From the NCBI GenBank assembly GCA_012519025.1, contig JAAYQZ010000086.1, positions 3,447 to 67,446 on the forward strand: DNA of 64,000 nt, given 5' to 3'. The notes beneath the pieces were generated by a model. It had not been told where the DNA came from and made no database searches. It worked only from the letters and a program-made list of their open reading frames with translations. Positions 2,409 to 21,095 of the stretch are shown here, piece by piece. A program made the position numbers and the translations under genes. Source of the DNA: Bacillota bacterium. Its GTDB lineage: Bacteria > Bacillota > Limnochordia > DTU087. Position 1 is the first letter of the stretch, and each line of letters begins with the position of its first letter.

Positions 2409-3134
2409 TTGGTTAGATGTGAAATGGAGATCGTTGATGGGGCAAAGAGTATGGGTGTACTCGTAGCGACAGAGGCAGAGCCGTTGTTTGAGCTTCATCG
2501 ATCCATGATTGTCGAATGGAATCAAAGGTTGAATCTCACAAGCATTCCTGTGCAGGAGATGGGGGAGAAGCATTTTCTCGATTCCCTTACACTACTTTTG
2601 TTGCCGGAAGTAGAGAAATCACGGCGACTTATTGATGTCGGAAGCGGTGCGGGTTTTCCCGGCGTGCCCATTAAAATTGCCCGGCCCAATATGCAGATTA
2701 CTTTGATAGATTCACTGCAGAAACGGATTGAATTTTTAAAGAACGTTATAGATTCTCTTGGATTGGAAGGAATCAATTGTTTTCATGGAAGAGCCGAGGA
2801 AATAGGACAGAACCGAACCCATAGGGAGCAGTACGATGCTGCGGTTGCCAGAGCGGTGGCCCCTTTGGTCCTTCTTGCCGAATATCTCCTGCCTTTGGTT
2901 AGGGTCGGTGGCACCATGGTGGCCATGAAGGGACCGGGTGGTAGGGATGAGGTTCCAGAAGCCGCAGATGCGGTGGAGATGCTGGGGGGAGAATTGTCTC
3001 GAATCATTGACACGGCCTTGCCCAGTGGCGATAGAAGACAGCTTGTGGTGATCAAAAAAATGACTGCTACAGCCGAACGGTACCCAAGAAGGCCGGGAAT
3101 CCCAAGGAAAAATCCGCTGAGCCGAAAAAAGTAG
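2409..3134 (+). CDS. rsmG: 16S rRNA (guanine527-N7)-methyltransferase RsmG (GidB)
   Basis: 241 aa. SAM-binding motif LIDVGSGAGFPGVPIKIARP. Position after mnmG. Confidence 0.9.
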   Translation: MVRCEMEIVDGAKSMGVLVATEAEPLFELHRSMIVEWNQRLNLTSIPVQEMGEKHFLDSLTLLLLPEVEKSRRLIDVGSGAGFPGVPIKIARPNMQITLIDSLQKRIEFLKNVIDSLGLEGINCFHGRAEEIGQNRTHREQYDAAVARAVAPLVLLAEYLLPLVRVGGTMVAMKGPGGRDEVPEAADAVEMLGGELSRIIDTALPSGDRRQLVVIKKMTATAERYPRRPGIPRKNPLSRKK

Positions 3135-3280: not shown

Positions 3281-4159
3281 ATGCAGGTGCGCTTGGGTGA
3301 TGTCCTTCGGGCACGGGTAAAGGATCTGGGAAAAAGGCAGCAGGTCCCAACTAGCCAAGAAGCAGATATAGTTCGGCAGATCCCGTTAGCAGATATTGAG
3401 GTAAATCCGTTCCAACCGCGGGAAACTTTTAACCAAGAGGCGATCCAGGAGTTGGCCCAGTCTTTAGAGGAGCATGGGTTGATCCAGCCTATAGTGGTCC
3501 GCAGTTGCCCAGAAGGCTACCAACTTGTAGCAGGGGAGAGAAGGGTTAGGGCGGCAGCATATCTTGGGTGGGAAACAATTTCTGCCGTTGTGAGGGAACT
3601 TGATGACGCTGCCAGCGCGCAAATGGCACTGATTGAAAACTTGCAGCGGGAAGACTTGGATTTTTGGGAAGAGGCTTTAGCATATCAACAGCTATTGGAG
3701 CAATTTGGGATGACGCAAGACGAATTGGCGCAAAGCATTGGGAAAAGCCAATCATCAATTGCTAATAAACTTCGCTTGTTGAAACTGAGCCCGAAAGTGA
3801 GAAGCAAGATTTCCCGGGAAATAATGACCGAGCGGCACTGTCGAGCCCTATTGAGACTGGATTCAGAAACCAAACAGCTTGAGGTTATTGAAACTGTGAA
3901 AGCGAAACAGCTGTCTGTTCGGGAAACAGAGGCTTTAATCGGTAAGATGCTCAACGATGATGTGGGAGGCGACACTTCGCAAAAGAGTGAGCAAAAGATC
4001 ACTAAGGTTTGGCGTGATGCCAGGTTGCTGCAAAACAGCGTTAGAGAGTTGGTTAAAGAGATGCGGTCCGGTGGGGTTGAAGTTGAACTAGAAGAGTCGG
4101 TTACTTCCGATTTATTGGAAATGCAGATTACAATTCAACGGCAACAGGTCGAAAAGTGA
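3281..4159 (+). CDS. noc: Nucleoid occlusion protein Noc (ParB-family). The real start may be GTG at 3287
   Basis: ParB N-terminal motifs (IPLADIEVNPFQPR, GERRVRAA) plus an HTH. First ParB paralog after rsmG and upstream of soj-spo0J. Carries its own NBS palindrome internally. Confidence 0.8.
   Translation: MQVRLGDVLRARVKDLGKRQQVPTSQEADIVRQIPLADIEVNPFQPRETFNQEAIQELAQSLEEHGLIQPIVVRSCPEGYQLVAGERRVRAAAYLGWETISAVVRELDDAASAQMALIENLQREDLDFWEEALAYQQLLEQFGMTQDELAQSIGKSQSSIANKLRLLKLSPKVRSKISREIMTERHCRALLRLDSETKQLEVIETVKAKQLSVRETEALIGKMLNDDVGGDTSQKSEQKITKVWRDARLLQNSVRELVKEMRSGGVEVELEESVTSDLLEMQITIQRQQVEK
3814..3827. promoter_or_regulatory. Noc-binding site (NBS), a perfect 14-bp palindrome ATTTCCCGGGAAAT
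   Basis: Exact match to the published B. subtilis NBS consensus. Lies inside the noc coding sequence. Confidence 0.6.
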
Positions 4160-4200
4160 TTTTAAGGACTACGTTAATCCAAGAGATGGGGTGAGGTGAA

Positions 4201-4959
4201 TTGGCCGTATGCCTAGCCATTGTCAACCAAAAAGGTGGTGTTGGTAAGAGTACTACTGCAGTAAATCTAGGTGCCTGCTTAGGCGAACTTGGGAAGAAAG
4301 TTCTTCTTGTTGATATCGATCCCCAGGGAAATGCTACCAGTGGAGTTGGGATCGAGAAGAGCCAAGTGGAACGATGCATGTACGACGTGCTTATCGAAGG
4401 CTGTCCCATTGAGGCTGCTGTTCAAAGAACACTTACCCCAGGGTTGGATGCTGTCCCCGCCACGTTGGAACTAGCGGGCGCAGAAATTGAACTAGTAGCA
4501 ACTATGTCCAGAGAGTATAAGTTGAAAAGTGCTTTAGAACCTATACTTGCTAATTATGACTATATTTTAGTGGATGCCCCACCTTCACTGGGGCTTTTGA
4601 CCATCAATGCGCTGTGTGCAGCTACAGCCGCATTAATCCCGATCCAGTGTGAATACTACGCGTTGGAAGGGGTGAGTCAGTTGATGGGAACCGTTGGGCT
4701 TGTAAAGGAGCATCTAAATCCAAATCTCGAAATCTGTGGAATTTTAATGACTATGTACGATGCCCGCACGAATCTGTCCCAGCAGGTAGTAGAAGAAGTG
4801 CAGAAGTTCTTTGGTGATAGGGTGTTTAAAGCTATCATTCCCAGAAACGTGCGTTTGAGTGAGGCACCTAGCCACGGCCAGCCGATCATAATGTATGATG
4901 AACACTGTCGTGGTGCTTCGGCGTATAGAGAGTTAGCTAGGGAGTTGATCGGAGCATGA
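4201..4959 (+). CDS. soj: Chromosome partitioning ATPase Soj/ParA
   Basis: Deviant Walker A motif KGGVGKST. 252 aa. Position between noc and spo0J. Confidence 0.92.
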   Translation: MAVCLAIVNQKGGVGKSTTAVNLGACLGELGKKVLLVDIDPQGNATSGVGIEKSQVERCMYDVLIEGCPIEAAVQRTLTPGLDAVPATLELAGAEIELVATMSREYKLKSALEPILANYDYILVDAPPSLGLLTINALCAATAALIPIQCEYYALEGVSQLMGTVGLVKEHLNPNLEICGILMTMYDARTNLSQQVVEEVQKFFGDRVFKAIIPRNVRLSEAPSHGQPIIMYDEHCRGASAYRELARELIGA

Positions 4960-5813
4960 CAAGACCTGCGTTGGGCCGCGGTTTGAAAGCCCTCATTCCT
5001 CAAATGGAGGAAAGTGGTGACATCGTTCAACAGATCCCTTTGGAGTCCATTGAAACCAATCCTTTCCAGCCCCGGGTTGATTTCAGCGAAGAGGCTCTCA
5101 AGGAACTTGCTGCTTCGATCCGGGAAAAGGGAGTCCTGCAGCCGATTACTGTCAGGCCCCATAAGAACAGATTTCAGTTGGTTGCCGGCGAACGTCGCTG
5201 GCGTGCTTCCAAGGCAGCTGGGCTGACAGAAATTCCAGCACTTGTCAAAGATTTAACAGATCAGCAAATTATGGAGATAGCCCTAATTGAAAATTTACAG
5301 CGGGAAGATTTGAACCCGATTGAGGAAGCCCAGGCGTACGAAACGTTAATTCGGCAATTTAGGCTAACCCAGGAAGAAGTGGCAAGTGCAGTAGGGAAAG
5401 GGCGACCTACAGTTGCCAATCGGATAAGATTGTTGCAGCTGCACGAGGACGTGCAGCAGTGGATTGCAAAAGGGGATTTGAGTGCCGGCCACGGAAAGAT
5501 TCTGGCTGCGTTAGAGAAAGATAGAGCCTGGGAGTTGGCCCAAGTATGTGTTCAAGAATCCTGGTCAGTTCGGCAGCTTGAGGCACACCTTAGTTCTGTA
5601 GGTGCCGAGTCCACAAGTGGCAGGCCCCCCATAAAGAAATCTGGTAGGCGAGATCCATTAATAACGGAAATTGAGGATCAACTGAGGGGCGTGTTTGGTA
5701 CTAAAGTTTTGGTACGGGACAACAAGGGTAAAGGCAAGATTGAAGTTGAATACTACTCCCCGGAAGAACTGAACCGTATTCTGGAAATTATGGGATGCGG
5801 GGTATGGGATTGA
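4956..5813 (+). CDS. spo0J: Chromosome partitioning protein Spo0J/ParB
   Basis: ParB motifs IPLESIETNPFQPR and GERRWRA, plus HTH. ATGA overlap with the soj stop. Confidence 0.9.
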   Translation: MTRPALGRGLKALIPQMEESGDIVQQIPLESIETNPFQPRVDFSEEALKELAASIREKGVLQPITVRPHKNRFQLVAGERRWRASKAAGLTEIPALVKDLTDQQIMEIALIENLQREDLNPIEEAQAYETLIRQFRLTQEEVASAVGKGRPTVANRIRLLQLHEDVQQWIAKGDLSAGHGKILAALEKDRAWELAQVCVQESWSVRQLEAHLSSVGAESTSGRPPIKKSGRRDPLITEIEDQLRGVFGTKVLVRDNKGKGKIEVEYYSPEELNRILEIMGCGVWD

Positions 5814-5829
5814 AGAAAGAGGAACCAGT

Positions 5830-6582
5830 TTGAACGACACCAACTTAAGACGAATGTTGTTGGAATTTAAAGCAGGTGCCATTGATCAAGATGCCGTCAT
5901 TGAATATGTGGAGTCTGGTCTTTATGAAGACGTGGGATTTGCTAAAATTGATCATCACAGGGCAAAACGCAAGGGCTTTCCGGAGGTAATCTATTGTGCA
6001 GGCAAATCCAAGCAGCAAGTAGTGGAGATATTTCAGCGGTTGGCCGATCGCAGTGATAAGGTTCTGGCCACTCGCGCCGATTCCGCTGTCGGTGAAGCGG
6101 TTTGCGAAGCCGTTAAGGATGCAAAGTACCATGAGATTGGGCAATTAATTACTTTGGGATGGTCCAGGAGCGAGCCAGAGGTAGAACAACCCTACATAGC
6201 AGTAATTAGTGCCGGTACTTCAGATTTATCTGTGGCAGAAGAGGCCGCTGTTACAGCGGAAATTATGGGGAGCAAGGTAGTGCGGGTCTATGATGTTGGG
6301 GTAGCCGGCCTACACAGGCTGTTTGGCGAACTGCATAAAATAGAAGATGCTAAGGCCGCTGTAGTTGTGGCTGGAATGGAAGGCGCTCTGGCGAGTGTTA
6401 TCGGCGGTTTAATTCACAGCCCGATTATAGCGGTCCCTACCAGCGTAGGTTATGGAGCTGCTTTAGGAGGGATGGCTGCACTGCTGGGTATGCTCAACAG
6501 CTGCGCACCCGGTGTTACTGTTGTGAACATCGACAACGGGTTTGGGGCGGGGTATAGTGCTCATTTAATCAGCACAGTGTGA
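5830..6582 (+). CDS. larB: LarB-like nickel-pincer cofactor biosynthesis protein (PurE-like P2CMN synthase), TTG start
   Basis: 250 aa. N-terminal LarB-specific region, then a PurE/AIR-carboxylase-like domain (IAVISAGTSDLSVAEEAA..VYDVGVAGLHR, GMEGALASVIGG). Confidence 0.7.
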   Translation: MNDTNLRRMLLEFKAGAIDQDAVIEYVESGLYEDVGFAKIDHHRAKRKGFPEVIYCAGKSKQQVVEIFQRLADRSDKVLATRADSAVGEAVCEAVKDAKYHEIGQLITLGWSRSEPEVEQPYIAVISAGTSDLSVAEEAAVTAEIMGSKVVRVYDVGVAGLHRLFGELHKIEDAKAAVVVAGMEGALASVIGGLIHSPIIAVPTSVGYGAALGGMAALLGMLNSCAPGVTVVNIDNGFGAGYSAHLISTV

Positions 6583-6621
6583 ATTAAATATCAAATTAGG
6601 TGAGAACGTGGACTGAGCTTT

Positions 6622-6651
6622 TAGTTAGTGTTCCACGTGGAACACTAACTA
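6622..6651. promoter_or_regulatory. parS centromere site. Core TGTTCCACGTGGAACA sits inside a perfect 30-bp palindrome
   Basis: TAGTTAGTGTTCCACGTGGAACACTAACTA is its own reverse complement. The 16-bp core matches B. subtilis parS (TGTTCCACGTGAAACA) at 15 of 16 positions. About 0.8 kb downstream of spo0J. Confidence 0.7.
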
Positions 6652-6692
6652 CCGGGTTCTGCAGGACAACATTTAAGTGATCTGTCCCTGCT

Positions 6693-6710
6693 ATGTTCTA
6701 CGTGGAACAT
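6693..6710. promoter_or_regulatory. Second, degenerate parS-like site, core TGTTCTACGTGGAACA
   Basis: ATGTTCTACGTGGAACAT differs from the first site at one core position. Centres are 67 bp apart. Confidence 0.5.
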
Positions 6711-6748
6711 ACGGGTACATAGACTCAAACTACAAGGGAGCGATTGTA

Positions 6749-7948
6749 TTGGTGAACGTTTATATTGACTGTTTTTCAGGAGCCAGTGGAAACATGTTCC
6801 TCGGGGCATTGCTGGACTTAGGCGTTCCCGAGGAAATCTTCCAAGGCGTTATCACCGCTTTGGGTCTGGAAGATGTACACCTGGAAATAACTAGAGTGGC
6901 CAAGCAGGGGATTGCGGCTTGCCATGTCGTTGTCCACCATCCTGAACAGCATGTACACCGCCATTTGCAAGATATAGTTGAGATTATTGAACAAGGGAGT
7001 CTTGAGCCTAAGGTAGCAACACGTGCCATCGCAGTGTTTGAAAGGTTGGCTGAAGCGGAAGCTAAAGCCCACGGTACTACTGTGGATGATGTTCATTTCC
7101 ACGAAGTGGGGGCTGTTGATGCCATTGTCGATATAGTCTGCACTGTGGCTGGGTTTCATCATCTGGGTGCAGAAGAGATACGTTCAAGTCCCGTCCATTT
7201 AGGGACAGGCTTTATAGATGTGGCACACGGCACCATGCCCATACCGGTGCCCGCTACTGTGAATCTACTGAGTGGAGTTCCAACCTATTCCAAGGGGATA
7301 CCCAATGAGTTAGTGACACCTACCGGCGCTGCCCTGTTGACAGAACTTGCTTCCGCTTACGGTCCCATGTCTAGTGGGCGATTAATCAAGGTTGGATATG
7401 GAGCAGGAACAAGAGATTTACCGATACCTAATTTGTTAAGACTAGTGTTGTTCGAACCAATACCTGAAGGCAAAACACTTTGGGACATGGATGAAATAGC
7501 TGTTATGGAATGCTCGATCGATGACCATAACCCTGAATTACTTCCCCCTTTGGCCCAAAGCCTGCTTGATAATGGTGCCCTTGACGTGTATGTGCAAAAT
7601 GCAATCATGAAGGGGGGGCGAGCCGGTGTCGTTTTAACTGTGCTTTCTCCCCTCGAACTGCAAGATGCCCTGGCAAAGCTGATTTTCAAAGAGACCACAA
7701 CACTGGGAATTAGGCTGGAACGCAAAAAACGCTACACACTTCCAAGGGAAATGATTTCAGTTGAGGTTGCCAGCGAAAACATCCAAGTCAAAATAGGAAA
7801 GTTGGGGGAGGATGTTGTGACGGTAGCTCCCGAATACCGGGATTGCTATCAGGTGGCCCAAACTGTGAAACTGCCTGTCCGGGAAGTATACGACCGCGCT
7901 AAAACCGCCGCCCGTGCAGCTTTACAGCTGGGTTCCGCAGCTGTTTAA
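6749..7948 (+). CDS. larC: LarC-like nickel insertase (DUF111 family). The ORF-track start at 6677 is probably too long; TTG/GTG at 6749-6752 precedes the conserved YIDCFSG motif
   Basis: N-terminal VYIDCFSGASGNMFLGALLDLG, typical of the LarC/DUF111 family. About 400 aa. Confidence 0.8.
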   Translation: MVNVYIDCFSGASGNMFLGALLDLGVPEEIFQGVITALGLEDVHLEITRVAKQGIAACHVVVHHPEQHVHRHLQDIVEIIEQGSLEPKVATRAIAVFERLAEAEAKAHGTTVDDVHFHEVGAVDAIVDIVCTVAGFHHLGAEEIRSSPVHLGTGFIDVAHGTMPIPVPATVNLLSGVPTYSKGIPNELVTPTGAALLTELASAYGPMSSGRLIKVGYGAGTRDLPIPNLLRLVLFEPIPEGKTLWDMDEIAVMECSIDDHNPELLPPLAQSLLDNGALDVYVQNAIMKGGRAGVVLTVLSPLELQDALAKLIFKETTTLGIRLERKKRYTLPREMISVEVASENIQVKIGKLGEDVVTVAPEYRDCYQVAQTVKLPVREVYDRAKTAARAALQLGSAAV

Positions 7949-8001: not shown

Positions 8002-8712
8002 CTATTCAATTTTGGAAGGTGCAACAGGTACTGACTCCCAGCTTCCACTAGAGAAAGGGATGCTTATATGATGTGTCCCTTTGTTTACTGCACAAGGGTA
8101 TAATGTCCTTTGGTACATATAAAGGAGCCCGGCAAGTGCATCGACCATAACCTGTGCCATGCGCATGACAAGACTCAAACGAGTATTTTGTAAAACAAAA
8201 TACTCCATGAACCCACCAACATTGACTACTCCGATCAAATGGCTCGTGCCGACTTCAACCAATTGTTTGTTTACACCGGTGCCGGGTTTGAGGGGTCCTT
8301 CCTTGGCCGTGATGTAGCCGATATTTTCAGATTTCCCTAGACATGCATCCAGAGCCAAAACATAAGAGTGTTGGTGTTTTTGCTGGAGCAATTCGGCGTA
8401 CTTCTCCAGATTTCCGGCATGCACGGGCTGTTCTAATGTGCCCAACACTTGTACTCCCGGTGGCAGTCTGTAGGATTCCAAAAGCTTAGTGCCGACAAGG
8501 GGACCTAGGGAATCGCCGGTGGAGCGATCGGTACCAACGCAAAGAATAACCAGTTGTGCCGGTTTATGCGGTGTGGCCATCAGGGAAAGCTCGGGCACCA
8601 TAAAAGTCCAAAGATCCTGGGCCAGCGTTTCCGGCCCCCTTGCATTGTCTATATGCACCCGCGAAACGTAATCAGGGTTCGTTTGTCCTTGGGAAGCCCA
8701 AGCCTTTGTCAA
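8002..8712 (-). CDS. yyaC: Sporulation protein YyaC (DUF1256 family)
   Basis: Conserved core LVILCVGTDRSTGDSLGPLVGTKL. Lies next to the soj-spo0J region, as in B. subtilis. Confidence 0.75.
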   Translation of the reverse strand: MTKAWASQGQTNPDYVSRVHIDNARGPETLAQDLWTFMVPELSLMATPHKPAQLVILCVGTDRSTGDSLGPLVGTKLLESYRLPPGVQVLGTLEQPVHAGNLEKYAELLQQKHQHSYVLALDACLGKSENIGYITAKEGPLKPGTGVNKQLVEVGTSHLIGVVNVGGFMEYFVLQNTRLSLVMRMAQVMVDALAGLLYMYQRTLYPCAVNKGTHHISIPFSSGSWESVPVAPSKIE

Positions 8713-8823: not shown

Positions 8824-9891
8824 ATGCTGGGTGTATGGTGGTCTTTTGCCGCAGCATACGTAGGGGCAGTTGTGGGGGCGGGGTTTGCATCTGGCCAGGA
8901 ATCGCTGACTTTTTTCGTGGTTTATGGCCACAGTGGCCTGATGGGAATTATACTGGTCTCCGTGGGCTTCATGCTCATGGGCGGCTTTAGCTTCATGTTG
9001 GCACATGCTTTAGGTGATGGCTCATATCGGCGTGTTCTTGAGGTTATCTGTGGAACAGGGTGGGCGAAGTACTACGATATTGTGGTCACCTGCTTTCTTT
9101 TAGCGGGTGTTGGAGTCATGCTGGCCGGTGCTGGATCTTTGATGCAGCAGCAGTGGGGAATTCATCCTCTGGTTGGGATAATTGCTACTGCTTGTTTTAC
9201 TGGTGCAAGCTGCATAAAAGGGGCAAAAGGTGTACTTTTCGTCAATGGTCTGTTGGTTCCAGTCATTTCAGTCTGCGCCATTGTTCTTGGAGTCAATGGC
9301 TTGTTGAAAATCTGGCCTTCTATACGCGCACATGGACTGGTAGTGTTGTGGAAAAGTGCTCCGTCAGCCTTAATCCCCAATTGGTGGCTTTCCGGTTTGA
9401 TATATTTGGCGTATAATTCCATGTTGGGTATTGCTGCTTGTATACCTGTGGCAGCGACGCTGCCCTCAAGGCGTTTCGCCTTTTGGGGCGGCATGGGGGG
9501 TGGACTGCTTCTTGGAATATTACTGCTTACAGGAAGCCTAGCTTTGTGGGGCAGGGGTTCTTCTACAGCAAATTCCCCTATACCCCTTGCCTTAGTAGCT
9601 GACGGCATCCATCCCATTTTCGGCAATGTCTACGGCATTGCTATTTGGTTTGCCATGCTTACTACGGCAGTTACAAATCTATTTGCCGTTGTGCAGCGAT
9701 ATGGGTCGGGGACACAAGCAGCAACTGTGGGGATGTTTTTATCTGTTGGACTGGTTTTGTCCTTAGTAGGGTTCGGGTATTTGATTGGATTGCTTTATCC
9801 CATCTTTGGTTACTTGGGAAGCGTCTATGTAGCAAAGTCTTTGGTATATTTCAGTAAAGATATATTACGCCAAACTAACAGGAGAAAATGA
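8824..9891 (+). CDS. Polytopic membrane protein, YkvI/YyaD-like
   Basis: 355 aa with about 10 predicted TM helices. The position beside yyaC mirrors B. subtilis yyaD. Confidence 0.45.
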   Translation: MLGVWWSFAAAYVGAVVGAGFASGQESLTFFVVYGHSGLMGIILVSVGFMLMGGFSFMLAHALGDGSYRRVLEVICGTGWAKYYDIVVTCFLLAGVGVMLAGAGSLMQQQWGIHPLVGIIATACFTGASCIKGAKGVLFVNGLLVPVISVCAIVLGVNGLLKIWPSIRAHGLVVLWKSAPSALIPNWWLSGLIYLAYNSMLGIAACIPVAATLPSRRFAFWGGMGGGLLLGILLLTGSLALWGRGSSTANSPIPLALVADGIHPIFGNVYGIAIWFAMLTTAVTNLFAVVQRYGSGTQAATVGMFLSVGLVLSLVGFGYLIGLLYPIFGYLGSVYVAKSLVYFSKDILRQTNRRK

Positions 9892-10631: not shown

Positions 10632-12008
10632 ATGTATCTAGTGATCCGTCTGCGGCGCTCGGCTCTACTCGTGATTATCGCGGTCATTATGATCGGCTGT
10701 CTTTCCAGTGTAGGTTATGCTTTTGTGGCTTCATATTTGGGTGGAGACGCTATTGCCCAAGGGGTTTCCGTTGCTTCAATAAATGTCGGAGGTCTCAGTT
10801 ATCAGGAGGCTAAGGCATTTTTGGGGAAATACCTGCAGACTGTTACCGACACTCCGCTTTCCATTGTCTGTGGAGATATTGAGTGGGATGTTGTACCGGG
10901 TCAAATTGGCATTACCACTGATCTGGACAATATTCTCACTTCTGCTTTTCAAGTAGGCAGACAAGGACATTTATTGAGACGAATATCCGACTACATCCAA
11001 AGCCAAAACCATGGGTGGGAGGTACCTCACATTGTCTCAGTTGATCGGGAAAAGCTGACCTCAGTTCTTAGAAAGATTGCTCTCAGTGCCAATCTTCCTC
11101 CCATAGATGCCGGGTTTCGCATAACTTCCAGTGGTGAAGTGGAAGTTATCCCCGGAATTCCCGGTCAAAAAGTGGAGCTAGATCAGCTGCTCAATGACGT
11201 AGTAACTGCTTCAATTTCCCCCAAAAGACGTACTGTTACTGTTACCCCCGAGCTAGTGACACCGGATTTTTCTACACAAGACGCCTATGCTTTACATATT
11301 CGGAGACCTATTGCCCAGTTTGCAACCGGGTTCGATCCCCAAGATGAAAACCGAGTAGCGAACATTCGTTTGGCGGCCCAAGAGCTGCAGGAGGTCCTCA
11401 TAAGGCCCGGCGAAATATTTAGTTTCAACCGTAAGGTCGGGCCTCGGTTGGATTCTGAAGGATACAAAGCCGCCCCGGTGATTATTAATGGACAGCTTTT
11501 ACCAGGTATCGGGGGAGGAGTATGCCAAGTATCTACAACACTATATAATGCTGTGCTTTTAGCCGGACTGGATGTGATCACCCGGTCCCCCCATTCCCTT
11601 CCTATTGCTTATGTCCCTTTAGGCCGAGATGCGGCTGTTGCTTACGACTATCTGGATCTTGTTTTCCGCAATAACTCACCATATGGTTTACTGCTCAATG
11701 CCGAAGTAGAATATGAGCGGCTGATCATCAAAGTTTATTCAGATGCACCCGAGGGAAGGAAAATTGAGCTGGATTCCAGTATAGTGCGGATCCTGGAGCC
11801 TGGAATAATACGGAGATTTGATCCTTCGTTGCTTCCCGGAACAGTGGTGGAGGAGAGGAAAGGCCGGCAGGGGTATGAAGTGCAGCTGTGGCGTGTCATA
11901 AAAATCGATGACAAGGTTGTTCACCGTGAATTGATCGAGGAAAGCACCTATAGACCCCAGGACAGATTAGTCAGGCAAGGGGTAGTGCCTAAATACGATG
12001 ATGATTAG
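10632..12008 (+). CDS. VanW-family protein with an N-terminal TM segment. Start chosen at the ATG preceded by AGGGAGGAG
   Basis: VanW core GGGVCQVSTTLYNAVLLAGLD..R..H..P..YVPLGRDAAV. A G5-like domain upstream. Confidence 0.75.
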   Translation: MYLVIRLRRSALLVIIAVIMIGCLSSVGYAFVASYLGGDAIAQGVSVASINVGGLSYQEAKAFLGKYLQTVTDTPLSIVCGDIEWDVVPGQIGITTDLDNILTSAFQVGRQGHLLRRISDYIQSQNHGWEVPHIVSVDREKLTSVLRKIALSANLPPIDAGFRITSSGEVEVIPGIPGQKVELDQLLNDVVTASISPKRRTVTVTPELVTPDFSTQDAYALHIRRPIAQFATGFDPQDENRVANIRLAAQELQEVLIRPGEIFSFNRKVGPRLDSEGYKAAPVIINGQLLPGIGGGVCQVSTTLYNAVLLAGLDVITRSPHSLPIAYVPLGRDAAVAYDYLDLVFRNNSPYGLLLNAEVEYERLIIKVYSDAPEGRKIELDSSIVRILEPGIIRRFDPSLLPGTVVEERKGRQGYEVQLWRVIKIDDKVVHRELIEESTYRPQDRLVRQGVVPKYDDD

Positions 12009-12117
12009 CTTTTAGGGTGGTGGAAAGAGGGTTTTCCAGCACGAAAGAGAAACTAAAATGAAGAAATTACCTAGATACAATAAAATACCTGTCGGGGCCC
12101 CAGGAGGCGATAAAATC

Positions 12118-13035
12118 ATGGCAAGATATGCATATTTCGAAAAGGACTTTGTCCCCTTGGAAGATGCGAAAATAAATGTGATGACCCACGCTTTTCTTTA
12201 CGGAACTGCTTGTTTTGAGGGAATTAGGGCTTATTGGTCTGAAGAAGAAGAACAGCTTTTTGTGTTTCGCATGAAAGAGCATTACGAACGGATTATACAA
12301 TCATGCAAGATACTGCGGATTGACCCAAAGTACAGCGTTGATGAGCTTTGCGAAATCACCCTTGAGCTTTTGCGCCGCAACGGTGATCGTCAGGATGTCT
12401 ATATCAGGCCTGTATTTTATAAATCAACCCATGCTATTGGAGTCAAACTGGATGGTCTAGATGATGGTTTTTTGGTTTTCGCTATTCCTTTTGGCGATTA
12501 CTTAGATATGGATAGGGGTCTTAAAGCCCGAGTATCATCTTGGCGCCATCTTGAGGATAATATGATTCCTATGCGGGCGAAAATCAACGGTGCCTATGTT
12601 AATGCTGCTTTGGCAAAAGACGAGGCCCTACAAGATGGATATGATGAGGCCATTTTTCTGGCTTCTGATGGCCATGTATCAGAAGGTAGTGCAGAGAATT
12701 TATTTATCGTTAGGAACGGAAAACTGATTACCACCACTGTTACTGCAGACATTCTCGAGGGGATTACCAGAAATACCGTAATGCAGATTGCCCTTGAGGA
12801 ACTTGATATCCCTGTAGTGGAAAGACCTATAGATCGAACAGAGCTGTATGTAGCCGATGAAGCCTTTTTCGTTGGCACCGGGGCTCAAGTTTGCCCAATT
12901 GCAGAGATCGATCATCGTCCCATTGGGGACGGAAGCATTGGGCCTATAAGCCGCCAAATTCAAAACTACTATTTCGATGTGGTGCTAGGAAAAGTGGACA
13001 AGTACCGCACTTGGTGTGCAGAGGTGTATGTGTAG
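12118..13035 (+). CDS. ilvE: Branched-chain amino acid aminotransferase (fold-type IV PLP enzyme). ATG at 12118 follows a GGAGG
   Basis: Class IV aminotransferase motifs (FEGIRAY, EGSAENLFIV, TR..V..A). About 305 aa. Confidence 0.7.
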   Translation: MARYAYFEKDFVPLEDAKINVMTHAFLYGTACFEGIRAYWSEEEEQLFVFRMKEHYERIIQSCKILRIDPKYSVDELCEITLELLRRNGDRQDVYIRPVFYKSTHAIGVKLDGLDDGFLVFAIPFGDYLDMDRGLKARVSSWRHLEDNMIPMRAKINGAYVNAALAKDEALQDGYDEAIFLASDGHVSEGSAENLFIVRNGKLITTTVTADILEGITRNTVMQIALEELDIPVVERPIDRTELYVADEAFFVGTGAQVCPIAEIDHRPIGDGSIGPISRQIQNYYFDVVLGKVDKYRTWCAEVYV

Positions 13036-13084: not shown

Positions 13085-13330
13085 CGAGGTCAAATGCGAA
13101 GAACAGCTTTTAACGGTTCCGACGCTTCCAGATCAAAAGTACAGTACGCTTTCTACGCTTTAGCAAAGGATTTAATACCAATTGCAGCACGCGGCACATA
13201 TGTCCACCCTTCTTTCTAAGCCTATATCATGATCCGCAAAGTGGGGTATGACATAGTTTTATTCCTGTACTAGGATATGGGTGGGAGCATTAAGGTGTGT
13301 CAGAACACAGACTATAGGGGGAGTTAGGCG

Positions 13331-14431
13331 ATGGCGGGTAAAACAACGCCCCTTGCCGCTAATCATAGGGCTTTGGGAGCACGCTTTACTGAATTTGGTG
13401 GTTGGCAAATGCCCGTGCAGTATACGGGTGTGGTAGCGGAGCATCTAGCTGTACGTCAGGCCTGTGGGTTGTTTGACGTATCACACATGGGAGAAGTTGA
13501 AGTTAGAGGGCCAAAAGCACTGGACTTTGTGCAGTGGGTTTTAACGAATGATGTGATTAAGGCGGCTCCGGGGAGAGTACAATACAACCTCTTATGTACC
13601 CATGAAGGCGGTATTATCGACGATCTATTGGTTTACCGGCATGAAGATTACGTAACTTTGGTTTTGAATGCATCAAACACGGAAAAGGATCTTAAATGGT
13701 TGATGGCACTGGCCCAAGAAGCGCCCCACAGCGGGCAGGTTGAACTCCTCAACATAGGCACTCAAAGGGCAATCTTGGCAATACAGGGGCCGCAAGCATC
13801 TGCTGCTATGGAGGCAGTGGGATTGGATGTTTCTGATCTGCCCTATATGGGATTCAAGCAACTTGGAAAAGACGGGGAAATCATCATTTCCAGAACCGGC
13901 TATACAGGGGAGCTCGGTTATGAGCTTTATATTCCTGCTTCTGGGGCCAGTGACTGGTGGGATAAATTTGCTGCATTGGAAGGGGAGATAACCGTCTCAC
14001 CTGCGGGACTTGCCGCCCGGGACACTCTGCGACTGGAGATGGGATACACACTTTATGGTAATGATATTGACGAAACTACAAACCCGTGGGAGGCAGGTAT
14101 TGGCTGGGCTGTTAAAATGAACAAAGGAAATTTCATTGGCAAAGACGCACTAACTGAATTGAAGGGGAAGTCCCGGCGCAGCTTGGTTGGTTTCACGGTG
14201 GAAGGAAGGGGCATTGCTCGGTCCGGCTATGAGATTTTGGTCGACGGTACACCTGTAGGGGAAGTCACCAGTGGTTCTATTTCCCCCTCACTCAATGTTG
14301 GTGTAGGCTTGGCTTATATTGAAACCGACAGCTGCAGCGAAGGCGATTTGGTTGACATATTAGTTAGGGGCAAACCTGTTCAGGCAAGGATTGCCACCCC
14401 ACCGTTTGTTCCGTCCCGGGTTAGGGATTAA
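13331..14431 (+). CDS. gcvT: Glycine cleavage system T protein (aminomethyltransferase)
   Basis: 366 aa with GcvT motifs ([18 protein letters not shown]). First gene of the gcvT-H-PA-PB cluster. Confidence 0.92.
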
Positions 14432-14489
14432 GTAACAAATTAACGGAGTCATTGACTCAAGATGACAAGACTACGAGGAGGACATCATT

Positions 14490-14870
14490 ATGAAAATACC
14501 AAGCGATCTGCGTTATTGCGAAACTCATGAATGGGCAAAGACCGAGGCTGAGCATGTGATGGTTGGTGTAACCGAGTTCGCCCAAGATGAAATGGGAGAT
14601 ATAGTATTTGTCGAACTGCCGGTTGTCGGCTCCGAATATAAGAAGGGTGAAAGCATGGCTGTGATCGAATCGGTCAAAGCTGTGTCCGATATTTACGCAC
14701 CTATCAGTGGCACTGTTGTGGAAGTAAACGAGTCCCTCAATGATCAACCGGAACTGATCAATGAGGATTGCTATGGTGAGGGATGGATGTTCAAAATAGC
14801 TTCTTCCAACGCAGAAGAGCTCGAAACTCTCATGAATGCAGCCGAATATGAGGCCCACACAGACGCTTAA
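14490..14870 (+). CDS. gcvH: Glycine cleavage system H protein
   Basis: 126 aa. Lipoyl-lysine motif ESVKAVSD. Confidence 0.92.
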   Translation: MKIPSDLRYCETHEWAKTEAEHVMVGVTEFAQDEMGDIVFVELPVVGSEYKKGESMAVIESVKAVSDIYAPISGTVVEVNESLNDQPELINEDCYGEGWMFKIASSNAEELETLMNAAEYEAHTDA

Positions 14871-14933
14871 GTCCTTGATGGATGGTCTGACAGAACTGAA
14901 GAAGCAATGTGTCGGTAAGGAGCGAAAGAGTTT

Positions 14934-16286
14934 ATGGGTCACCCTTATTTATCTTTAACCGATGAAGAACGGCTGCAAATGCTGTCGGATGTCGGTGTAG
15001 GTTCTGTTGATGAACTTTTTGTCGATATTCCCTCGGAGATCTTGTTAAAAAACGACCTGGAAATGCCTGAAGGCCTCAGTGAGAGTGAACTATGGGCTCA
15101 CGGCCGCATGCTTGCGGAACGAAATATGTCCCTTGACAGCAACCCGTCATTTCTCGGTGCAGGTGTTTACCAGCATCTTATACCCAGTGCGGTTAAACAC
15201 GTTGCAAACAGATCTGAATTTGTCACTGCTTATACTCCATATCAAGCGGAGATTAGCCAGGGTGTTCTACAGGCTATTTTCGAATACCAAACATTAATCT
15301 GCCAGCTTACAGGCATGGATGTGGCTAATGCTTCTTTATACGATGGGGCAACGGGTTTGGCAGAAGCCGCCTTGATGGCAGTAGCCACAACGAGAGGTAA
15401 ACGCGTGGTAACATTCGAAAGCCTGCATCCGGATTATTTGGCTGTTTTGGCGACTTATCTTCGGGCCGTAGATACAGAATTAGTTGTATTACCTGCTAAA
15501 GATGGTTTGGCTGATATTGAGTCCCTGAAGCCGTTTTTGAATGAAGAAACAGCAGCAGTTATGGTGCAGCAGCCAAACTTTTTTGGTTTATTAGAACCGG
15601 TGGATGCATTGGGCGACCTGCTCAAAGAAAGCCCCAGCCTTTTTGTAGCCAGTGTTAATCCTATATCATTGGGAATCCTGCAGGCCCCATCTGCTTATGG
15701 TGCCGATATTGTTGTTGGTGAAGGCCAACCATTGGGAAATCCATTGGCTTTTGGTGGTCCAAGCTTTGGTTTCATGGCTGTTTTGGACAAGTACATCCGT
15801 CGTATGCCCGGTCGCATTGTTGGTCAAACAGCAGATAAAAACGGTAACCGCGGGTTCGTATTGACTTTACAAACCCGGGAACAGCACATTCGCAGACACC
15901 GAGCCACATCGAATATCTGTACAAATGCTGCTCATTCGGCTTTAATCGGGGCTGTATATTTAGCTGTTTTGGGTAAACAGGGTTTGACTGAGGTAGCCAC
16001 ACAATGTGCGCAAAAAGCCCATTATACTGCGGAGCAGATCAGCGCTATTCCTGGATGGGAACTCGTATTCTCAGGGTCCTTCTTCCATGAGTTTGTGGTA
16101 AAAGCCCCTATCTGTGCAATTGAGGTTGAACGGGCTTTATTGAAAGAAGGTATTGTCGGTGGTTTACCGCTGTCAAAAGTCTATGACGACAAAAAATGGG
16201 AAAACACAATGTTGTTTTGTGTAACTGAGGCTCGCACGGCACGAGAAATCGAGCATCTCCTTCAGGTACTCAGGGAGGTGAAATAA
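14934..16286 (+). CDS. gcvPA: Glycine dehydrogenase (decarboxylating) subunit 1
   Basis: 450 aa. Follows the two-subunit P-protein architecture of Firmicutes. Confidence 0.9.
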
Positions 16287-17764
16287 TGGCTGTAAACCAG
16301 CAAATCCCACTATTAATGGAATTGGGTTCTCCGGGCAGGCGAGCATATTATCTGCCCAAACTTGATATACCCTCAAAACCGGTAGACGAAATTATTCCGA
16401 AAAACCTCATCCGCGAAGAACCGGCTTCCTTACCGGAGCTTAGTGAACTGGAAGCAGTCAGACATTACACCGGACTGTCTAGACGCAACCACGGTGTAGA
16501 TGTTGGTTTTTACCCATTAGGTTCTTGTACAATGAAATACAACCCTAAAATAAATGAGGATTTGGCATCCCTACCGGGCTTAGCAGAGATTCATCCTTAC
16601 CAGCCGGAAGAAACCGTGCAAGGAGCCTTGCAGCTTATGTATGAGCTGGAACAGGATTTGTGTGAGATCGCGGGATTAGATCGTGCGACTTTAAGTCCTG
16701 CCGCGGGTGCACATGGTGAGCTCACAGGCTTGATGCTTATTAAAGCCTATCATGAGGCCGGGGGAGAGGGTCATCGCGATGAGATCATTGTCCCAGACGC
16801 TGCCCATGGTACAAACCCCGCAAGTGCGGCGATGTGTGGGTATAAGATAGTTGAGGTCCCCTCTGACGAACGTGGAGGGGTCAGCGTTGAACACCTAAGG
16901 CAAGTCGTGGGACCTAATACAGCAGGCTTAATGCTGACCAACCCCAATACTTTGGGATTATTTGATGAGAATATCCTGACGATCACTGAATTGGTGCACG
17001 ATGCCGGTGGGTTGAATTACTATGATGGTGCCAATGCCAACGCTATTTTAGGCAAATGCCGAGCCGGAGACATGGGTTTTGATGTGGTTCATTTCAACCT
17101 GCATAAAACCTTCTCTACACCCCACGGTGGCGGTGGGCCCGGTTCTGGCCCTATTGCTGTTCGTGACATCTTAGTGCCCTTTTTACCCACTCCCACTGTG
17201 GAAAAAGATAGTGAAGATTGCTTTGTGCTGCAGCATAACCGGTCGAAATCCATTGGTAAGGTCAAGGGATTTTACGGCAATTTCTTGGTGTTGGTCCGAG
17301 CCTATGGATATATGCGCACCATGGGTCCAAAAGGTTTGAAACGGGCCAGTGAAGATGCCGTTTTGTCCGCCAATTATATTATGGAACGGCTTAAGGATGT
17401 TTATAATCTGCCATATGATCGAGTTTGCATGCACGAATTTGTTTTATCGGCTGTTATGCAGAAAAAGCATGGTGTAACTGCACAGGACATAGCCAAACGT
17501 CTGTTGGACTACAATATCCACGCACCAACTGTCTACTTCCCAATGATTGTGGAAGAAGCTTTGATGATTGAACCGACAGAAACGGAGACCAAAGCGGAAC
17601 TTGATGCATTTATAGAAGTTATGCGGAATATAGCGGCAGAAGTATTGGAATCACCTGAAAAACTGCAGCAAGCCCCTTATCACACGGTGATCGGGAGATT
17701 AGACGAAACCCAAGCTGCACGAAGGCCTATAGTCCGTTGGCAGGCTGCCGAAACCGAGGAGTGA
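16286..17764 (+). CDS. gcvPB: Glycine dehydrogenase (decarboxylating) subunit 2, PLP-binding
   Basis: 492 aa. PLP-lysine region [18 protein letters not shown]. Start overlaps the gcvPA stop (TAATGG). Confidence 0.9.
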
Positions 17765-17771
17765 GATCCAT

Positions 17772-18665
17772 ATGGAAAGGGCGGGGTTAAGCCAACGCAT
17801 GGTTGTTGGCTACCTGGGTCCCCCGGGAACTTTTTCGGAACAGGCGGCTTTGGTGTACAAACGGAAATTTGTTGTTCAAGCCGTTTCGTCCATGGAGGTA
17901 AAACTAGAACCCATGGACAGTATTCTCTCGCTGATTTTAGCGGCTGACAAAGGGACACTGGATAAAGCAGTTGTCCCTTTGGAAAATTCACTGGAAGGTT
18001 CAATAGCCTTGACGCTTGATATGTTGGCCCATGAGGTGACGGTTAGAATCACCAACGAGATCATTGTGCCTGTTCGCCATAATCTTCTGGTAAAACGGGA
18101 TATACCCTTAGTGGATATCAAGGAGGTAATCAGCCATACGCAGGCTTTAGGCCAATGCAGTGCCTTCTTGAGGAAACACTTACCTCAAGCGAAACTGACG
18201 GCAGTCAATTCAACGGCAGAAGCCGCTCAAATCGTAGCAGCGACTAAAACCAACGAGATTGCTGCTATTGGTACAGAAGTTGCGGCAGCAGTATACGGTG
18301 TTTCTGTCTTAGTTGGGAATATTCAAGATAACAGCACCAATGTGACTCGCTTTTGTGTACTGTCAGCGACTGATGCGGAAGCCACCGGTGATGATAAAAC
18401 CTCTTTAGTGTTTTCACCTAAACAGAATCGGGCGGGCATATTGTACGAACTGTTGTACGCGTTTGCGAATCGTAAAATCGATCTAACCAGAATCGAATCA
18501 CGGCCCGCCAAACGCATATTGGGGGAATATCTTTTCTTCATAGATATAGCAGGCCATCGCACTGAACCGGCAGTAGCAGCGGCCCTGCAGGAGGTAAACG
18601 CAGCCAGCAGTTTCTTTAGATTACTAGGTTCCTATCCCCGCTGGAGAGACGATAAGGGGGAATGA
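17772..18665 (+). CDS. pheA: Prephenate dehydratase with C-terminal ACT domain. ATG at 17799 is an alternative start
   Basis: TRF and ESRP signature motifs (TRFCVLS, ESRPAKR) and an ACT domain. Begins 7 nt after gcvPB. Confidence 0.8.
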   Translation: MERAGLSQRMVVGYLGPPGTFSEQAALVYKRKFVVQAVSSMEVKLEPMDSILSLILAADKGTLDKAVVPLENSLEGSIALTLDMLAHEVTVRITNEIIVPVRHNLLVKRDIPLVDIKEVISHTQALGQCSAFLRKHLPQAKLTAVNSTAEAAQIVAATKTNEIAAIGTEVAAAVYGVSVLVGNIQDNSTNVTRFCVLSATDAEATGDDKTSLVFSPKQNRAGILYELLYAFANRKIDLTRIESRPAKRILGEYLFFIDIAGHRTEPAVAAALQEVNAASSFFRLLGSYPRWRDDKGE

Positions 18666-18669
18666 GTCT

Positions 18670-18861
18670 ATGATTCCGGTATACAAAATAGGAGATATTG
18701 TACAGCTGAGAAAAGCCCACGCTTGCGGAGGTGACCGATGGGAGGTCCTGCGGATAGGCATGGATTTTCGCATCAAATGCCTAAATTGTGGTCGAGTTAT
18801 TATGGTATCTCGGCGGAAATTTGAACGACAGGTGAAAGCAGTCGTCCAGGAGGGTATATAA
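18670..18861 (+). CDS. DUF951 family small protein (YyzM-like)
   Basis: 63 aa with a CxxC..C motif. The conserved position just upstream of ychF matches B. subtilis yyzM. Confidence 0.55.
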   Translation: MIPVYKIGDIVQLRKAHACGGDRWEVLRIGMDFRIKCLNCGRVIMVSRRKFERQVKAVVQEGI

Positions 18862-19983
18862 TTGTATTCTATGGGCATTATCGGACTTCCCAATGTAGGC
18901 AAATCAACATTGTTTAATGCACTTACCCAAGCCGCTGCTGCTGCCTTCAATTATCCTTTTTGTACAATTGAACCCAATATTGGAATTGTGGCTGTCCCTG
19001 ATGCAAGATTCGACAGCGTGGTGGCTGCGGTACAGTCGGAGAAGGTTACACCTGCTGCCATTCAATTCGTAGATATTGCAGGTCTTGTAAGAGGTGCCAG
19101 CAAAGGCGAAGGATTGGGCAATCAATTCCTTGCACATATCCGAGAAGTTGATGCTTTGATCCATGTAGTTCGATGTTTTCCGGATGAAAATGTAAGCCAT
19201 GTCGAGGGTGCGGAACTAGATCCGGTCCGTGATATAGATATTGTTCAAACGGAGCTTTTGCTTGCGGATATCCAAAGGCTGGAGAACATGACTGAGAGGC
19301 TGACTCGTCTTCAAAAAACTGGTGAGACAAAGTATAAGGACGAGTTGCGGCTTGTGCAGGATGTAATGGAGCAGCTAAACAATGGTCGCCCGGCCCGAAA
19401 CATGTCTTTTACTGAGAGCCAAAAAAAATTGGTGGATAGTTGGCTTTTATTGACTTCCCTGCCGATGCTCTACTGTGCCAATGTGACACCGGAACAGTTT
19501 TTGGAGATCCAGAATGCCGAAGAACACAGACACCTTGATTCTCCTTATGCTGAGGTTCTAGATCTAAGCAGTGAAGAAGGGGCCGGGTGTATTGCCATCG
19601 CGGCTCAACTTGAGGCCGAACTGCAGGAATTAGATGAAGAAGAACGTCAGGAGTTTCTGACAGAGCTCGGGTTTCCTACTTCCGGTCTTTTGCGCCTGAT
19701 ACGAGCCTCTTACAGACAGTTGGATCTTGTCACATTTTATACAATCAAAGGACCTGAAACCCGGGCCTGGATAATACCCCGGGGAACAACTGCTCCCAAA
19801 GCCGCCGGCCGTATTCACAGTGATATGGAAAGAGGGTTTATCAGAGCAGAAGTGCTTGAAGCGGGGAGTTTAGTTGAATTGGGTTCTTTCAGTAAAGCCA
19901 GAGAAGAAGGAGTGCTCCGGTCGGAGGGTAAAGATTATCTAGTGCAAGACGGAGATGTCATGCTAATTAGGTTTAATGTTTGA
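18862..19983 (+). CDS. ychF: Ribosome-binding ATPase YchF
   Basis: G1 motif GIIGLPNVGKSTLFNALT and a C-terminal TGS domain. About 366 aa. Confidence 0.92.
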   Translation: MYSMGIIGLPNVGKSTLFNALTQAAAAAFNYPFCTIEPNIGIVAVPDARFDSVVAAVQSEKVTPAAIQFVDIAGLVRGASKGEGLGNQFLAHIREVDALIHVVRCFPDENVSHVEGAELDPVRDIDIVQTELLLADIQRLENMTERLTRLQKTGETKYKDELRLVQDVMEQLNNGRPARNMSFTESQKKLVDSWLLLTSLPMLYCANVTPEQFLEIQNAEEHRHLDSPYAEVLDLSSEEGAGCIAIAAQLEAELQELDEEERQEFLTELGFPTSGLLRLIRASYRQLDLVTFYTIKGPETRAWIIPRGTTAPKAAGRIHSDMERGFIRAEVLEAGSLVELGSFSKAREEGVLRSEGKDYLVQDGDVMLIRFNV

Positions 19984-19995
19984 GTGTGGTCTTTG

Positions 19996-20024
19996 TTGCA
20001 AGTAAGATAAGCCGGTGGTATAAT
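19996..20024 (+). promoter_or_regulatory. SigA-type promoter for the rpsF-ssb-rpsR operon
   Basis: TTGCAA(19996-20001), a 17-nt spacer, then extended -10 TGgTATAAT (20016-20024). Confidence 0.5.
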
Positions 20025-20087
20025 GACACTGGTTATCCCTGCTCCAGGCGCGACCTGGGGCCATGTCCATGGGGAGGAGGTGAAGCT

Positions 20088-20381
20088 TTGGTGCGACCGT
20101 ATGAGATGATGCTCGTTTTGCAGCCGGATTTGGAAGAAGAAGTTGCTGATGCCTTGCTGGAACGTCTATCCGGCGTGATTACCGGTGAGGGCGGCACTTT
20201 AGATAACATTGACAAATGGGGTAAAAGACGGCTGGCCTATGAAGTTAACGGGTTCACCGAAGGCTTCTATGTGGTGATCGATTTTCAAGCGGAGCCCGCT
20301 ACAGCCAGTGAGCTAGAGCGGATTGTAAAGATCGCCAATGGAGTCATTCGACATTTGTTGATTCGTAAAGATGAAGACTGA
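20088..20381 (+). CDS. rpsF: 30S ribosomal protein S6. TTG at 20088 or GTG at 20091 follows GGAGGAGG; the ORF-track start at 19980 is too long
   Basis: N-terminus (M)RPYEMMLVLQPDL is typical of S6. About 97 aa. Confidence 0.85.
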   Translation: MVRPYEMMLVLQPDLEEEVADALLERLSGVITGEGGTLDNIDKWGKRRLAYEVNGFTEGFYVVIDFQAEPATASELERIVKIANGVIRHLLIRKDED

Positions 20382-20448
20382 GATGACCGATTGGGATGTT
20401 TACAGCTAGTGACAGCTCCGCTCCGAGACATAGATAGGAGGAGCGCAA

Positions 20449-20853
20449 TTGCTCAATCGAGTTATACTGATCGGCCGTTTAGTAGCCGACCCGGAACTGA
20501 GATATACGCAGAGTGGAACTGCGGTTACCAATTTCCGTTTGGCCGTTGATCGATCATTCACCAACCAAAGCGGAGAAAGGGAAACGGATTTTATTCCTAT
20601 CGTGGTCTGGGACAGGCAAGCAGAAACCTGTGCCAACTATCTGAACAAAGGTAGATTGGTGGCAGTAGACGGCCGTATGCAGGTACGTTCCTATGATGCG
20701 CAGGATGGTTCACGGCGCTGGATTACTGAGGTTGTGGCCCAGGATGTTAGATTTCTAGACTGGGGTCAACAATCAGAACGCGGCGATGACGCTCAAGGAA
20801 CTGTCACTCCATCTTATGATGATTTTGATGATGTTCCCTTTCTGAAGGAGTGA
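20449..20853 (+). CDS. ssb: Single-stranded DNA-binding protein
   Basis: OB-fold N-terminus [18 protein letters not shown] and acidic C-terminal tail DDFDDVPF. Confidence 0.92.
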
Positions 20854-20858
20854 TATAC

Positions 20859-21095
20859 TTGGCCAGAGAAAGGCGAAGAGGCCGCAGAGGCAGACGCAGA
20901 GTCTGTAATTTCTGTATTGACAAAGTGACACATGTTGATTATAAAGAAGTAGGCCGACTGCGACGCTTTCTATCGGATCGGGGGAAAATTCTCCCAAGAC
21001 GAATATCGGGTAACTGTGCTCGTCATCAAAGACAGATGACAGTTGCCATTAAGCGTGCACGGCAGGTTGCTTTGCTGCCGTATTCGGCGGAATAA
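20859..21095 (+). CDS. rpsR: 30S ribosomal protein S18. TTG at 20859 sits 8 nt after GAAGGAG
   Basis: [18 protein letters not shown].. signature of S18. Confidence 0.85.

Follow-up and report, generated by a model that had tools for sequence, protein, structure and literature searches.

In the 64-kb stretch of DNA analysed here (hereafter, the window), two palindromes located downstream of spo0J very probably represent the parS sites of an origin-proximal ParABS system, recognized by the neighbouring Spo0J/ParB of an uncultured Limnochordia-like Firmicute, and the 30-bp symmetry of one of the two is most likely incidental. The presence of two Spo0J parS sites near the partition operon had been claimed in an earlier note on this DNA. 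As far as function can be predicted from sequence, this claim is strongly supported by the identity of one site to a validated parS, by the specificity residues of Spo0J, and by the conservation of the cores alone among relatives, including those devoid of lar genes. The result annotates the predicted centromere of an uncultured, biogas-associated Limnochordia-like lineage.

Gene organization around the palindromes

Genes within the window were assigned by NCBIfam profile scans. In the order of positions, the region includes mnmG (503-2386), rsmG (2409-3134), a noc-like ParB paralogue (3281-4159, plus strand; 313.5 bits with the nucleoid_noc model, just below the cut-off of 315), soj/parA (4201-4959, plus strand; the partner ATPase, identified by ParA/MinD-family partition ATPase models), spo0J/parB (4956-5813, plus strand; ParB/RepB/Spo0J family, E=1.4e-59; the predicted parS-binding CTPase clamp), larB (5830-6582, stop at 6582), larC, and yyaC (8002-8712, minus strand). 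The start of spo0J is overlapped 4 bp by soj, consistent with an operon. The order mnmG-rsmG-noc-soj-spo0J corresponds to the second half of the canonical origin-flanking order, in relatives rpmH precedes spo0J by about 10 kb, and the GC skew stays positive from one end of the window to the other. The predicted origin-proximal location of the sites is thus supported by synteny and GC skew.

The start codon of larC is most likely TTG at 6749 or GTG at 6752, as predicted from the ribosome-binding site (AAGGGAG, 6734-6740) and from the homology to relatives, which starts exactly at the residue encoded by 6752. Given this start, both palindromes would be intergenic, within the 166-bp larB-larC gap (6583-6748, plus strand). 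The mechanically defined larC open reading frame (423 aa, GTG at 6677) is over-extended and would swallow the second palindrome. On the identical contig L033, gene callers placed the larC start at an ATG corresponding to window position 6794, with the loss of the conserved N-terminus VNVYIDCFSGASGN.

Two palindromes with parS cores

The first site, parS site 1, is a perfect 16-bp palindrome (TGTTCCACGTGGAACA, 6629-6644, unstranded, as read from the sequence) and forms the centre of a perfect 30-bp palindrome (TAGTTAGTGTTCCACGTGGAACACTAACTA, 6622-6651, unstranded) with a symmetric flank of 7 bp on each side (TAGTTAG and CTAACTA). The second, parS site 2 (TGTTCTACGTGGAACA, 6694-6709, unstranded), carries a single mismatch, C to T at position 6, and its symmetry goes one A...T pair past the core. 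The first core agrees with the B. subtilis consensus TGTTNCACGTGAAACA at 15 of 16 positions, and the comparison with the parS consensus tGTTNCACGTGNAACa gave no mismatch for site 1 and one for site 2. The 30-bp palindrome, the 15/16 core match, the second copy with one core mismatch, and the position in the larB-larC gap about 0.8 kb past spo0J had all been described in the earlier note and were confirmed by the sequence and the coordinates; the distance given there, 67 bp, should be corrected to 65 bp, measured either from start to start or from centre to centre, with 42 bp separating the end of the 30-bp palindrome from the second core.

By a search with TGTTNCACGTGNAACA allowing up to two mismatches, both sites were the sole matches in the 64-kb window, against an expectation of 0.20 from shuffled sequences, and two matches were reached in two of 100 shuffles. 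The number of matches with three mismatches in the same 64 kb was five against 2.7 expected, which is at the level of chance. A chance origin of both sites was rejected on the basis of these shuffle counts and of the comparative conservation described below. For a perfect 30-bp palindrome, about 6e-5 occurrences are expected in 64 kb (64000 x 4^-15).

Predicted recognition by Spo0J and not by the Noc-like paralogue

The domains ParB_N, HTH_ParB, and ParB_C of Pfam are recorded on two proteins (P0001 and P0002) that are 100% identical to Spo0J, and the best relatives of Spo0J among solved structures are Spo0J/ParB structures. It carries the motif GERRWRA and the helix-turn-helix stretch GKGRPTVANRIRLLQL...AGHGK. 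Four specificity positions have been defined for this protein family (173, 179, 184, and 201 in Caulobacter numbering); ParB proteins invariably have R173 and G201, and the set Q/K/K/R marks Noc (Jalal et al., PMC7383237). By aligning the GKS[RQ] and GH/RH motifs to the published numbering, the residues of Spo0J were placed as R/R/Q/G, with the R and G equivalent to Caulobacter R173 and G201 and thus of the parS type, and those of the Noc-like paralogue, with the helix-turn-helix stretch GKSQSSIANKLRLLKL...ERHCR, as Q/K/K/R, the NBS-specific set. Both partners of a ParABS system are therefore encoded next to the sites, a ParB with a DNA-binding domain of the parS type (spo0J, 4956-5813) and a ParA/Soj ATPase (soj, 4201-4959).

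A perfect NBS core (ATTTCCCGGGAAAT) was identified at 3809-3822, inside noc itself (codons K-I-S-R-E-I-M, within the DNA-binding domain), and is kept at the DNA level in all the relatives in which noc is covered (L033, L034, L036, L037, L041-L046, and L167-L169). Neither palindrome carries the NBS core: at positions 2 and 7 of the 16-mer half-site, both have G and A in place of the A and C of NBS. The residue sets, together with the separate NBS, suggest that the two paralogous systems are distinct in this clade and that the palindromes would belong to Spo0J; the Noc-like paralogue is predicted not to bind them. If so, the division of labour between ParB/parS and Noc/NBS, with the published specificity residues, would reach a deep branch of Firmicutes. 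Several relatives carry a second NBS, with one mismatch, in their gcvP region (at 19755 in L042, for example).

Each 16-bp palindrome is predicted to be recognized by a dimer of Spo0J/ParB through its helix-turn-helix domain. By analogy with the ParB proteins studied so far, ParB bound to parS would close, in a CTP-dependent manner, into a clamp able to leave the site by sliding along the adjacent DNA, and a partition complex spanning the origin-proximal region would form as clamps are loaded again and again at both sites. The complex would then engage Soj/ParA and load the SMC condensin, leading to segregation of newly replicated origins. The second site would serve as an extra loading point, as is usual in bacteria.

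Conservation of the cores among relatives

Spo0J is 100% identical to the protein of a MAG labelled "Firmicutes bacterium" and 61-69% identical to those of further MAGs, including one labelled Limnochordia; by a scan of GTDB representatives with Spo0J, the best identity was 48%. Contigs encoding Spo0J homologues were compared over +/-10 kb, including the strain-level copies (L033-L037) and seven further lineages (L038/39, L041, L042/43, L044-46, L167, L168, and L169). The common order in these relatives is rpmH-rnpA-yidD-yidC-jag-mnmE-mnmG-rsmG-noc-soj-spo0J-(larB-larC)-...-yyaC. In all eight lineages, the clade of the window included, two to three copies of TGTTCCACGTGGAACA with 0-1 mismatch occupy the first gap or gaps that follow spo0J, and no core was found elsewhere within +/-10 kb in any of the eight. 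The centre-to-centre spacing, 65 bp in the window, is 205 and 213 bp in L038, 118 bp in L041, 48 and 49 bp in L042, 39 bp in L044-46, 78 bp in L167, 127 bp in L168, and 119 bp in L169.

Upon alignment of the gaps across relatives, the mean column identity was 40% and essentially the cores alone lined up, which indicates that selection acts on the 16-bp sites themselves; the cores are kept and the flanks are not, as expected for purifying selection. Of the 24 cores in the clade, 23 keep the central CACGTG and one, in L042/L043, has CATGTG; the variant core of site 2 is also the second site in L044-L046. The flanks of site 1 are identical in the strain-level contigs L033-L035 and are not conserved in relatives of 61-67% Spo0J identity.

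The pairing of the two sites had been regarded in the earlier note as an unusual loading-site arrangement. This view is not upheld, because parS pairs or triplets spaced by tens of bp are what is normally present near parAB in the samples studied, in agreement with published cases. In the metagenome sample, at least two sites are present in 58 of 117 contigs, and of 88 inter-site distances 38 are within 100 bp and 53 within 250 bp; clusters near parAB are also seen in out-group parB loci, and in P. aeruginosa parS1-4 form a four-site cluster close to oriC (PMC4368675). For the triage of genome scans, parS pairs and parS inside longer palindromes are common, and neither warrants a flag as an anomaly.

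Relationship of the sites to the lar genes

In L044-46, larB is lost and larC is cut to its first 249 or so residues (10862-12140), and in L169 both larB and larC are absent (10862-11230); the sites are kept directly after spo0J in the former, and two perfect cores directly follow spo0J in the latter. Outside the clade, a total of 32 parB loci from other phyla, none of them with lar genes, were taken from the scan of genome contigs with Spo0J: in 14 of the 32, one to four parS sites are located no more than a few kb from parB, and the identical 16-mer is used by five Acidobacteriota loci. Among the 120 metagenome contigs picked solely for the 16-mer, the stored stretches hold soj (27), spo0J (20), mnmG (28), rsmG (18), and larC (1). 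Since the sites persist without larB and larC and occur beside parAB without lar genes, the lar genes should be regarded, from these comparisons, as bystanders to the parS sites. In P. aeruginosa, ParB bound to intergenic parS can repress downstream genes (PMC7022226), and by analogy a side effect on larC is conceivable. In parts of the clade (L044-L046 and L169), the nickel-pincer cofactor genes are decaying.

Symmetry beyond the core

At a single site, an extension of symmetry by 7+7 bp has a chance of 4^-7. Among 249 non-redundant parS sites, 20 (about 8%) were found to be extended by at least 5 bp; ten register-shift controls gave 0-2 such sites, and a within-site shuffle gave 1.3. An extension of at least 7 bp was seen in 12 sites, against 0-1 in the controls. 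About 8% of parS sites, that of the window included, are thus perfect palindromes of at least 26 bp with arbitrary arms, the arm sequences being all different among the 20. A run of T is located downstream in two of the 20 and a run of A upstream in four, one site having both. Within the clade itself a second, unrelated extension is present in L044-46, where the core is bordered by ACAGCAGA on the left and TCTGCTGT on the right. This site combines an imperfect core with perfect 8-bp flanks and does not fit the simple picture of a palindrome that is born perfect and then decays.

The excess of extension was considered as a property specific to parS, and this was rejected by the similar tail of non-parS palindromes and by the extension of two NBS sites. 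In the same 1.37 Mb, nine of 53 non-parS perfect palindromes reach a half-length of at least 13, two of the nine being parS variants. The 53 also include two symmetrically extended NBS sites, of half-lengths 13 and 11, and only the former counts among the nine.

Extended or compound palindromes were also observed in unrelated metagenome contigs (L073, 939-976; L165, 1052-1079; L104, 13095-13120). These include a perfect one of 38 bp around the core CGTTCCACGTGGAACG, two overlapping arrays of parS half-sites (GTTCCACGTGGAACGTTCCACGTGGAAC), and one of 26 bp around an NBS core.

Alternative interpretations of the palindromes

The location of the sites between larB and larC, ending 40 bp before larC begins, could suggest operators for a lar-specific factor controlling larC, for instance a Crp/FNR-type LarR with its 5-N6-5 "Lar box", the likeness to parS being coincidental. 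The arrangement TGTTC-N6-GAACA has such a Crp/FNR-like layout, and the sites adjoin lar genes in most relatives too. This interpretation is extremely improbable, because the cores remain in L169 and L044-46 after the loss of lar genes, the conservation of the CACGTG centre is expected for parS and not for an N6 spacer, and Acidobacteriota loci devoid of lar genes have this 16-mer clustered next to parAB. In addition, no Crp/FNR-type regulator is encoded beside the lar genes, all the genes from mnmG (503) to a VanW-like gene (12008) belonging to other families except one (8824-9891) belonging to none; on comparative grounds, the co-occurrence with lar genes and such a regulator that characterizes a Lar box was not observed, and a lar-specific operator was rejected. 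The probability is close to nil for a dispersed repeat family of REP or MITE type unrelated to partitioning, as only two copies exist in 64 kb, none lies elsewhere within +/-10 kb in relatives, the 15-nt arm of the 30-bp palindrome has no other copy in the window, and its 26-mer GTTAGTGTTCCACGTGGAACACTAAC has no match in the metagenome collection. An action mainly at the RNA level, in which the palindrome forms a hairpin in the larB-larC transcript for termination, pausing or stabilization and the match to parS is secondary, is hardly more attractive. As RNA, the 30-bp palindrome would form a 13-bp stem, the gap folds better than its shuffles (z = -3.1) with both palindromes as hairpins, and with the C-to-T change of site 2 a G-U wobble pair can still form in RNA of the sense strand; any palindrome folds well, however, so that the z value is not independent evidence. 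A weak sigma-70-like match (TCGACA-17-TATAGT, 10/12) at 6530-6558, in the 3' end of larB, would put both sites in the 5' leader of larC, but the promoter scan as a whole was at the level of chance (two found against 1.6 expected). Against the hairpin, neither stem is followed by a run of T, the palindrome stem being followed by CCGGGTTCTG, so that the G+C-rich stem and T-run of an intrinsic terminator are not seen; no terminator was called in 5700-7000, no Rfam family was found in 6400-6900 at E<=1, the stems past the 16-bp core are unconserved in relatives, and runs of T or A are infrequent beside the 20 extended sites, as given above.

With the cores assigned to Spo0J, the extra symmetry of site 1 might still indicate that its flanks bind a second dimeric factor, as had been suggested in the earlier note, or extend the contact surface of ParB or Noc. 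The extension is far beyond chance for one site, and extended parS sites are in excess across bacteria. The 20 arms are mutually different, however, and the two that occur within the clade, CTAACTA and TCTGCTGT, are also unlike each other; the remaining parS sites of these lineages are without the extension, the QKKR residues of Noc are NBS-specific and Noc has a conserved NBS to itself, and non-parS palindromes are extended at a similar rate. The second factor is accordingly judged to be very unlikely. The differing arms, the tail of non-parS palindromes, and the unconserved flanks argue instead for a young and arbitrary origin, in agreement with the recent origin that the earlier note had offered as the other possibility, the flanks being unconserved in relatives beyond the strain level. 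Most likely, the 7+7 bp of added symmetry arose recently in evolution, with arbitrary sequence, as a by-product of the perfect palindrome, and it is probably not a recognition element. A more meaningful role of the symmetry is rather unlikely: new centromere sites might typically be born by inverted copying of a half-site together with its flank, or the extrusion of a hairpin or cruciform might be selected in connection with ParB loading or read-through transcripts.

As to the by-product, the extension could arise by template-switch extension of an inverted repeat or by the birth of the site through local inverted copying. Template switching is a described mutational process that homogenizes and expands inverted repeats and, as quasipalindrome mutagenesis, is a known route to a longer and more perfect palindrome of arbitrary sequence, according to two reports (PMC7202029, PMC13100816). 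In keeping with this route, no two of the extended parS sites share an arm. One template switch alone could reach into unrelated flanks only when primed from a mismatched end, and several steps, or birth by inverted copying, must therefore be assumed; the link of this process to site 1 is inferred. By keyword search of a library of papers, no prior description of extended palindromes at parS was found. The excess of extended palindromes at parS and at other palindromes could inform the origin and turnover of centromere sites.

Comparison with known partition systems

The 16-bp sequence of site 1 (TGTTCCACGTGGAACA) is identical to parS2 and parS3 of P. aeruginosa, which are experimentally validated and are the highest-affinity sites of ParB, and sites with one mismatch are also bound by ParB in this organism (PMC4368675). 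As in the window, perfect and one-mismatch sites are clustered near oriC and parAB in P. aeruginosa and P. putida, some of them being intergenic (PMC4368675, PMC7022226). The present system differs in that its host is a Limnochordia-like Firmicute and not a gammaproteobacterium and that two sites 65 bp apart within one intergenic gap take the place of the four-site cluster near oriC of P. aeruginosa.

The gene order rsmG-noc-soj-spo0J-...-yyaC is shared with B. subtilis. In B. subtilis, the parS site nearest to the operon is located inside the spo0J coding sequence. In contrast, spo0J of the window is without an internal site, and parS is located in the next intergenic gap but one; in addition, the window uses a symmetric G/C variant at positions 5 and 12 in comparison with TGTTNCACGTGAAACA of B. 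subtilis, and its NBS sits inside its own gene, noc. The pair of ParB and Noc paralogues, with the published residues R..G and QKKR, respectively, is common to both (PMC7383237).

Other features of the neighbourhood

Beside yyaC, a protein of 355 aa is encoded at 8824-9891, with no match in NCBIfam or Pfam, and its location and length (347-358 aa) are conserved in all the relatives covering that spot except L167. In L167, a fragment of IS605 OrfB and a cas operon (Cas3, Cas5d, Csd1, Cas7, Cas4, and Cas1) at 13321-20861 follow larC and UPF0180, replacing the yyaC neighbourhood. Upstream of rsmG, two tandem full-length mnmG (GIDA) genes are present in L041-L046, L167, and L169 (about 3500-7400), and in the window one complete copy (503-2386) is preceded by a partial gene at the window edge.
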